DNA from: an uncultured Candidatus Saccharibacteria bacterium | GTDB lineage: Bacteria; Patescibacteriota; Saccharimonadia; Saccharimonadales; JAGQNJ01 | NCBI GenBank assembly: GCA_964510945.1 | Contig: CAZEED010000001.1 | Location: 98,774-162,773 of the forward strand | Direction of reading: 5' to 3' | DNA length: 64,000 bases | Shown here: one piece after another, positions 63,559 through 64,000 of the stretch | Layout of the letters: each line of letters opens with the position of its first letter | How positions within the stretch are numbered: the stretch's first letter is position 1 | The notes under the pieces: generated by a model | What the model was told of the DNA's origin: nothing | What the model saw: only the letters and a program-made list of their open reading frames with translations | Databases searched by the model: none | Program-made: the position numbers and the translations under genes

Positions 63559-64000
63559 ATGCGAAAACTCGCACTACTAGCGATGCTAGTATTGGGTGTA
63601 CTTTTTATTAGTACTACCACAGGATCAGCACATGCTGAAACAATTAAAAAAGTAAGCAAAAGTAAACAGAAAATCGTAACAGTACAAAGTGGTGACTCAT
63701 TAGTAAAAATTGCTAATAAGCACAAAACTACCTATAAACGCATTTTTGATGCGAACAAAAAAATAGAGAGTCCAGACTTGATCTTTCCAGGTCAAAAACT
63801 AAGGATTCCCAAGAAAAGTGAGAAGCTAAGGTCTAGAACAGTAGCACAAGTAGTCTCTGCGCCAGTGACGAGAACTCAACCAGTTGCTGTGGCAGCACCG
63901 CAACCCGCTCCTGCACCAGCCAACTACGCTACAGGCGACAGTGTTTGGGATCAGATTGCTGCATGCGAATCAGGCGGTAATTGGGCCATCAATACCGGCA
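63559..64000 (+). CDS. Secreted LysM-domain protein with Rpf-like transglycosylase domain (3' truncated by window end)
   Basis: Not in the ORF track because it runs off the end. SD AAGAGGAGGTG; signal peptide [26 protein letters not shown]; LysM [28 protein letters not shown]...[11 protein letters not shown]; Pro/Ala linker; [22 protein letters not shown]. Confidence 0.8.
   Translation, partial: [147 protein letters not shown]

Follow-up and report, generated by a model that had tools for sequence, protein, structure and literature searches.

Resuscitation-promoting factors (Rpf) have been described as confined to the Actinobacteria (PMC1084345, PMC4070687), and a 2025 paper places them "potentially in other phyla". 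Secreted muralytic proteins of the YabE/SleB type, known as Sps, were proposed as functional counterparts of Rpf outside that phylum, in Firmicutes (Ravagnani et al. 2005, PMC1084345), but these have another catalytic domain, by non-orthologous displacement. Here we consider a gene with a true Rpf domain, preceded by a LysM domain, that begins near the end of a 64,000-nucleotide (nt) stretch of DNA from an uncultured Candidatus Saccharibacteria bacterium (contig CAZEED010000001.1). We refer to the whole stretch as the window and to the gene's product as the window protein. Because the organism is one of the Saccharimonadales, and because homologues are also found in metagenome-assembled genomes (MAGs) of Chloroflexota, we regard the protein as extending the known range of Rpf; its source does not exclude it from the family. 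A literature search did not find a dedicated study of Rpf from Saccharibacteria.

Among the described proteins, RpfE, RpfB, and RpfC of Mycobacterium tuberculosis (PDB 4cge, 4emn/3eo5, and 4ow1) have the PF06737 domain in common with the window protein, at 60-75% identity over about 70-80 residues. They also share the CE(S/A)GGNW motif and a pair of cysteines with it, and the modeled fold has a root-mean-square deviation (rmsd) of about 1 Å. They differ in the rest of the protein: RpfB has DUF348 and G5 domains and RpfE has a Pro/Ala-rich N-terminus, while the window protein has a single N-terminal LysM and comes from a Saccharibacterium. The Rpf of Micrococcus luteus and the RpfA type of Streptomyces are secreted and have the same two domains, but in the reverse order (Rpf N-terminal, LysM C-terminal). 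More broadly, Rpf-LysM is the arrangement in Micrococcales and Streptomyces, DUF348-G5-Rpf is found in Propionibacteriales, and Acidimicrobiales have LysM-Rpf, like the window protein. In the Acidimicrobiales proteins (loci L025 and L036; we number loci and contigs with L and proteins with P), a signal peptide, a LysM, a low-complexity linker, and a C-terminal Rpf domain ending in ...WPACSSKLGLR follow each other as they do here. Those proteins belong to a different phylum and are 39-42% identical overall to the window protein.

The LysM-Rpf gene and its product

The window contains codons 1-147 of the gene (63559-64000, plus strand, as for all features of the gene and its leader; 442 nt), from an ATG at 63559 to the window's end, where the open reading frame (ORF) is still open. 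The Shine-Dalgarno sequence AAGAGGAGG (63546-63554) ends 4 nt before the ATG, and its AGGAGG is conserved in relatives. By inspection, amino acids 1-26 (63559-63636) form a Sec-type signal peptide with a basic n-region, a 14-residue hydrophobic core, A-H-A at -3/-1, and no lipobox Cys. Cleavage is predicted at AHA|E. The signal peptide is conserved in homologues and corresponds to a low-confidence N-terminus in our AlphaFold (AF2) model, which was built on 29 homologues. A peptidoglycan-binding LysM domain follows at amino acids 41-84 (63679-63810; Pfam PF01476, E = 1.6e-15, 57.2 bits versus a cut-off of 20.9). It is modeled as beta-alpha-alpha-beta (strands at 38-41 and 80-83, helices at 48-54 and 59-65), with a predicted local distance difference test score (pLDDT) of 81-91, and solved LysM structures match it. 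Next comes a flexible linker rich in Pro, Ala, Val, and Gln (amino acids 85-125, 63811-63933), which is modeled as disordered (pLDDT below 50 for residues 97-125) and which differs in length and sequence among homologues. Finally, the first 21 residues of the Rpf catalytic domain (amino acids 127-147, 63937-63999), with Cys136 and the catalytic Glu137 of CESGGNW, lie inside the window and by themselves score 29.8 bits against PF06737 (Transglycosylase-like; gathering cut-off 27). A preliminary description of this DNA had already called a secreted LysM and Rpf-type protein here, and we confirm every part of it: the ORF, the Shine-Dalgarno sequence, the signal peptide, the LysM domain, the linker, and the Rpf motif.

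The rest of the gene can be read from other contigs. A homology search found a protein of 204 amino acids (P0001) that is 99% identical to the window protein, and P0244, a member of its 90% cluster, matches the 147 residues in the window at 100% identity. The contigs that encode P0244 (L126 and L127) are identical to the window at all 933 and 562 overlapping bases, respectively. They extend the ORF by 174 nt past the window to a TAA stop, for a whole gene of 615 nt and 204 amino acids. The preliminary description allowed for a truncated or inactive domain beyond the window's edge, but the catalytic Glu and both cysteines are present, which rules this out. Judging from the sequence, the Rpf domain is complete, neither truncated nor inactivated. 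Full-length P0244 scores 113.9 bits against PF06737. Cys197 lies in the continuation, and it and Cys136 align to the cysteines of RpfB and are a putative disulfide pair, as in RpfB. Both cysteines and Glu137, the equivalent of RpfB Glu292, are invariant in 29 homologues. The solved domains of M. tuberculosis RpfB, RpfE, and RpfC match the full Rpf domain at E = 1e-24 to 1e-29, and the alignment to RpfE is ungapped over 69 residues. In a Foldseek comparison, the modeled domain (pLDDT 84-94) matches RpfE 4cge with a template modeling score (target) of 0.94, an rmsd of 1.0 Å, and 73% identity, and RpfB and RpfC match too. About 25 nt past the stop, L126 and L127 have a G+C-rich hairpin with a run of T and then a tRNA on the opposite strand, so the LysM-Rpf gene appears to be monocistronic.

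The preliminary description reasoned on the condition that the organism is Saccharibacteria-like, and the sequences show that it is. Proteins named Candidatus Saccharibacteria, Saccharimonadales, or Patescibacteria share 91-93% identity with the window's EF-Tu (36035-37216), the G+C content is about 40%, and those full-length homologues of the LysM-Rpf protein that carry a name are from Saccharimonadales. When we scanned a collection of genomes, full-length matches above 45% identity came only from Saccharibacteria MAGs. In the same scan, actinobacterial Rpf genes numbered in the hundreds, and a few came from Chloroflexota (MAGs). The family is large: when 1.84 billion cluster representatives were searched exhaustively with a profile, 1,743 clusters (at 50% identity) reached E ≤ 1e-30, and most of the best 150 clusters have proteins of about 185-300 amino acids that match from end to end, i.e., with LysM at the N-terminus and Rpf at the C-terminus. 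A few labels look doubtful. A locus with a full-length LysM-Rpf gene is labeled Candidatus Parcubacteria (L018), a contig with an RpfB-type gene is labeled as a MAG of Sphingomonas paucimobilis (L061), and an EF-Tu that is 92% identical to the window's is labeled Verrucomicrobiae (P0178). Mis-binning is the likely cause.

Relation to actinobacterial Rpf domains

Over 77 aligned columns, the catalytic domain of the window protein is 75-82% identical to many actinobacterial sequences. A homology search with just this domain gave, among the matches listed, 80-88% identity to short RpfE- or RpfB-type proteins, including those of Mycobacteroides and Mycolicibacterium; this search was restricted to candidates that share words with the query and leaves the query's own cluster unlisted, and we use it only qualitatively. 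We also built a neighbor-joining tree from the 77 columns of 193 sequences, with 200 bootstrap replicates. The Rpf domains of Saccharibacteria were monophyletic in none of the 200 replicates and were interleaved with the actinobacterial ones. In 151 replicates the window's domain had its sister outside the Saccharibacteria (mostly in Propionibacteriaceae or Friedmanniella), and it never grouped with that of P0002, despite 85% identity across the first 147 residues. The preliminary description had proposed that phylogeny would separate exchange with host lineages from an ancient vertical family unrelated to them. The outcome is mixed: the gene does look vertical and old within the Saccharimonadales, but its Rpf domain is related to those of the host lineages, with 75-88% identity and no separate clade.

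The disagreement with P0002 is concentrated in the C-terminal part of the domain. In the last 52 residues, P0002, P0003, and P0005 are 92-96% identical to each other, although their N-terminal parts are only about 54% identical. The window lineage shares 78-85% identity with P0002 and P0003 N-terminally, yet over the final 52 residues its identity to these three proteins is just 61-65%, and it differs from them at 19 positions. At 12 of these 19 positions it has the actinobacterial residue, and the stretch GLQFTLGTWQANGGSGYPHQASRSEQIRVAKNV (33 residues, 153-185) has 3 differences from an RpfE-type protein. In the DNA, identity to L007 drops from about 0.8 to about 0.55 past nt 450, and synonymous identity drops from 0.61 to 0.43 in the divergent segment (30 codons). 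This segment (L126 943-1106, codons ~150-204, past the window's end) is invariant in all seven members of the 90% cluster. Its GC content and its GC content at third codon positions (GC3) are not raised, and its codon use is native. We considered recent horizontal transfer of the 3' segment and rejected it, as GC and GC3 are not elevated.

To us, the discordant C-terminal segment looks like an old recombination tract. In type, the catalytic module is actinobacterial, and Saccharibacteria probably acquired it long ago. The window lineage would later have replaced the 3' half of this module with an actinobacterial-type Rpf sequence, in an event that would be old or ameliorated. The case for a mosaic draws on 52-77 residues and is suggestive, not proof, and there is another way to see it. 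The Rpf domain may be ancient and under extreme purifying selection, with the window lineage keeping consensus residues or reverting to them, so that it looks actinobacterial without any transfer and the "mosaic" is just variation in rate. The 77 columns of the tree give poor resolution, for the C-terminal 52 amino acids the best match from Actinobacteria is little better than the best from Saccharibacteria (79% versus 75%), the sampled donors are all distant, and the synonymous drop is measured on just 30 codons. That GC3 is not raised also favors this explanation. But rate variation does not readily explain why P0002, P0003, and P0005, which are so unlike each other in the N-terminal part, should be nearly identical in the very segment where the window lineage, which is closer to them N-terminally, departs; nor why 12 of the 19 changes should arrive at actinobacterial residues; nor why the bootstraps so often choose a sister from outside the Saccharibacteria and never choose P0002. 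We think that rate variation is a serious competitor, though probably not the answer.

The leader

The preliminary description mentioned a leader of roughly 150 nt (63404-63558) with a long hairpin. The hairpin holds up: its arms exist, are conserved, and covary. The boundaries needed mending, as the intergenic region runs from the stop of rpmG and is 180 nt (63379-63558), and the 5' untranslated region is about 128 nt from the predicted start, near 63431. The intergenic region is 83% identical across loci whose proteins share 53-78%. It contains a probable promoter (63397-63424), namely TTGACA at 63397-63402, a spacer of 16 nt, and TAAGCT at 63419-63424, which is a motif shared by related leaders: TTGAC[ATG], 16 or 17 nt, and TA.G[CA]T are found in 16 of 16 saccharibacterial leaders. 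A consensus promoter scan called no site here because the -10 element TAAGCT matches the consensus at 3 of 6 positions. We also noticed a terminator-like match at 63404-63426 (stem TCAGTTTACG/ATGTAAGCTGG and a T-rich tail) inside the promoter spacer and the -10 element. It is most likely due to chance.

The hairpin, which we call P1, lies near the 5' end of the mRNA (63431-63482). In minimum free energy (MFE) folds it has a basal helix (63431-63437 with 63476-63482) and an inner hairpin (63443-63447 with 63457-63461), and its arms are TTTGTGTC (63429-63436) and GACACACAAA (63477-63486). It begins 5-8 nt past the -10 element in all 16 leaders, at or adjoining the predicted mRNA 5' end, and its apical part often carries GUGAG(G). 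The arms vary while pairing is kept: they are GUGUC/GACAC in the window, GCGUG/CACGC in L012, GUGCU/AGCAC in L015 and L017, and GUGUG/CACAC in L016. In an alignment of the arms only, 4 of the 6 pairs of the basal helix are altered on both sides (U-A to C-G; C-G to U-A, G-C, or A-U). The covariation score is 0.434, versus 0.224 in shuffles (0 of 500 shuffles reach the score), and it collapses in slid registers.

A second, long-range helix (P2) is possible between a C-tract, GCCCU at 63471-63475, and a G-tract, AGGGC at 63534-63538, about 10 nt upstream of the Shine-Dalgarno sequence and within the invariant block AAAACAAAAGGGCA. The best duplex, AGCCCUG/AAGGGCA, is predicted at -10.1 kcal/mol with z = -3.46 in the window, and the mean z over the leaders is -1.9. 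Equivalents elsewhere pair a C-tract CCCCUGUUAUUC with a G-tract GAAUAACA...GGGG, GACCGC with GCGGUC in L125, and CCAUAA with UUAUGG in L014.

Our best reading is that the leader would be a cis-acting RNA: a 5' stabilizer, a translational control element, or both. That the window's hairpin is a conserved, covarying element is supported by the comparison of leaders. There are several results on the other side. By itself, the window's hairpin is no more stable than chance (z = +0.19; 105 of 200 shuffles fold equally well or better), so its reality rests on the comparative evidence. MAFFT and RNAalifold did not find a consensus structure for the hairpin segments or for the whole leaders; this is because the 3' arms were misaligned, and we fell back on per-sequence folds and the arms-only alignment. 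The arms therefore come from the individual MFE folds of the sequences, and this pushes the paired percentage up. Also, P1 and P2 would have to form a pseudoknot or compete, because in the window's clade the C-tract is inside P1.

In Actinobacteria, rpf genes often lie behind a cyclic di-AMP (c-di-AMP, ydaO) riboswitch, and this includes the genes of the Rpf-LysM type. The window's leader differs: a search of Rfam with the leader (63100-63700 and 63415-63560) and 16 related leaders at E ≤ 10 gave no match to any family, including this riboswitch. For the whole window, at gathering thresholds, Rfam matches only tRNAs and one L10 leader elsewhere. A closer comparison may be the lysM-TM7 motif, a candidate cis-regulatory RNA in the 5' untranslated regions of lysM genes from TM7 (i.e., Saccharibacteria); c-di-AMP binding was not seen for it (Weinberg et al. 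2017, PMC5737381). The setting is the same as for the window's leader, and it is by this setting that we liken the two. The window's leader may be the lysM-TM7 motif, but identity is unproven, and the 16 leaders have no Rfam match. A scan of metagenomes with the leader core TTGTGTCTTTTGNCAGTGA gave 29 matches, and since none of them has the promoter context or a downstream Rpf gene, we attribute them to chance. A candidate anti-Shine-Dalgarno sequence (CCACACCCCCTC, 63384-63395), complementary to the Shine-Dalgarno sequence, was dropped: its position is upstream of the promoter, and L009 does not keep it.

The conserved elements might instead act as DNA, as operators for repressors or as a site for DnaA. 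Right after the rpmG stop, 9 nt upstream of the -35 element, is an exact match to the DnaA-box consensus, TTATCCACA (63379-63387). It occurs once in the 64 kb, with 0.67 copies expected by chance, and may link DnaA to the expression of a wall hydrolase. In four related loci the box lies 8-9 nt upstream of the -35 element, as it does in L007, L009 (as TTTTCCACA), and L011, and three more keep it further off: L013 at 18 nt, and L012 and L016 at about 116 nt. In addition, the conserved block GGTCTTTGTGTCTTTTG overlaps the predicted start site, and a palindrome flanks the promoter in other lineages. But the DnaA box is absent from 9 of the 16 leaders, and changes on both sides of the hairpin's arms that keep the pairing, at 4 of 6 positions, are expected of an RNA and not of a protein's operator. 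We doubt that DNA-level control accounts for the leader in place of structured RNA and would be quite surprised if it did. Control by RNA and control by DNA are not mutually exclusive, however.

The palindrome is an observation from other loci. GCTACATGTAGC, which is perfect, is near the promoters or leaders of LysM-Rpf genes in L012 (2820), L016 (2646), and L019 (2598), and at L123 (~2285) there is just CTACATGTAG. In L012 and L016, GCTACATGTAGC lies between the DnaA-like box and the -35 element; the window lacks it. It may serve as an operator or simply be a small repeat element.

Gene neighborhood and the target of the enzyme

Upstream of the leader is rpmG (ribosomal protein L33, 63172-63378), which is itself preceded by tRNA-Thr. 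The order rpmG-rpf is kept in L007, L009, L011, and L013, where identity to the window's Rpf protein is 78%, 53%, 55%, and 52%, respectively. On the other side, rpf is followed by an AAA_33/zeta-like kinase, YgjP, and a histidine kinase (and then secE-nusG-rplKA); this order is kept in L001, L007, L009, and L011 and reaches L019, where the kinase is 43% identical. Within the 64-kb window we did not find a second copy of Rpf or LysM, which could have been a donor for gene conversion. Because the gene order is conserved and there is no such second copy, the gene seems to be old and vertically kept within the Saccharimonadales, as a housekeeping-type gene and not part of a recent island.

Two more observations concern the neighborhood. 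In L001 (6939-9465), the AAA_33/zeta-toxin-like kinase, the YgjP-like metalloprotease, and the histidine kinase lie between rpf and secE-nusG-rplKA. As most bacteria have secE directly after rpmG, this four-gene block is probably an old insertion into an rpmG-secE cluster. Further upstream in the window, at 62221-63060, three small ORFs (52, 121, and 66 amino acids) lie between tRNA-Tyr (61919-62004) and tRNA-Thr (63051-63125), and the last of them overlaps the start of the tRNA. A PHROG scan of these ORFs gave zero matches. Because L007 has a GATase of 476 amino acids in this slot and L009 has a serine recombinase of 553 amino acids, it is probably a variable insertion spot.

Taken as a whole, the explanation that we lean toward, with some confidence but not a great deal, is a secreted LysM-Rpf enzyme that mainly remodels the bacterium's own wall, with an RNA leader and an ancient catalytic module of actinobacterial type. 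Transcription would start from the conserved sigma-70-type promoter. The mRNA would begin with the conserved, covarying hairpin, followed by the pairing of the C-tract with the G-tract beside the ribosome-binding site, and this leader probably controls the mRNA's stability or its translation. Going by the known biochemistry of LysM and Rpf domains, the protein would be exported and cleaved after AHA, the LysM would retain it on glycan strands that contain N-acetylglucosamine (GlcNAc), and the small lysozyme-like Rpf domain would cut bonds between N-acetylmuramic acid (MurNAc) and GlcNAc at the Glu137 site. The module would have entered Saccharibacteria by ancient transfer, and its C-terminal half would have been replaced later in the window lineage. 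The least certain step is the main role, which we suggest is remodeling of the cell's own wall, of Gram-positive type, as the cell grows and divides. We favor this role because the gene is found almost throughout the order, in conserved synteny, and is old there.

Alternatively, as the preliminary description suggested, the enzyme could be directed at an actinobacterial host. It might thin the host's peptidoglycan at the site of attachment, or it might mimic the host's own Rpf signal for growth or resuscitation, and dormant hosts would then grow again and feed the epibiont. The cultivated members of this organism's group are epibionts, mostly of Actinobacteria, and a 2026 preprint reports that an RpfB orthologue group was enriched in a cohort of Saccharibacteria and Paceibacteria that rose after soil drydown. 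Furthermore, actinobacterial Rpfs, among them the mycobacterial RpfE type, share 75-88% identity with the catalytic domain. The saccharibacterial and actinobacterial domains interleave and are never separated by the bootstraps, and the C-terminal 52 residues, so unlike those of the nearest relatives and, at 153-185, so close to the RpfE type, suggest exchange with actinobacterial-type genes. On the other hand, strong conservation is a property of Rpf domains in general, so high identity says little about whether the substrate is shared. The gene also sits among housekeeping genes with conserved synteny and not in an island, the family spans Saccharimonadales of many habitats, and the divergent segment has native GC3 and codon use. 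We consider a host-directed effector rather unlikely, at somewhere above one chance in four.

Remodeling of the bacterium's own wall is thus the role that we prefer, but two results do not favor our explanation. The very high similarity to the Rpfs of the host phylum and the mosaic C-terminus would fit a host-directed role too. Also, the protein falls short of the NCBIfam equivalog for M. luteus-type Rpf (NF046106; 150.9 bits, below the cut-off of 180), whose domain order differs. Nevertheless, a widespread, syntenic, and apparently single-cistron gene fits self-wall remodeling at least as well, and the two roles are not mutually exclusive. A bolder idea is that Saccharibacteria took their hosts' "wake-up" enzyme and keep exchanging its catalytic module, and that they use it to open the host's wall or to resuscitate the host, under a dedicated RNA leader and possibly under the control of DnaA. 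This strikes us as unlikely, although we would not be astonished.

What would this mean for the biology of these bacteria? If the role is plain turnover of the bacterium's own wall, then this is an ordinary annotation: a known kind of protein in a phylum where it has been little discussed, with the possible mosaic catalytic half and the conserved, covarying leader as the additional features. Still, Rpf is usually called an actinobacterial specialty for ending dormancy, and here is a large and conserved LysM-Rpf family in the Saccharibacteria, whose cultivated members live on Actinobacteria, with catalytic domains that are up to 88% identical to mycobacterial ones. And the covarying leader, which does not match the c-di-AMP riboswitch, is a candidate regulatory RNA for wall hydrolysis in a minimal genome.

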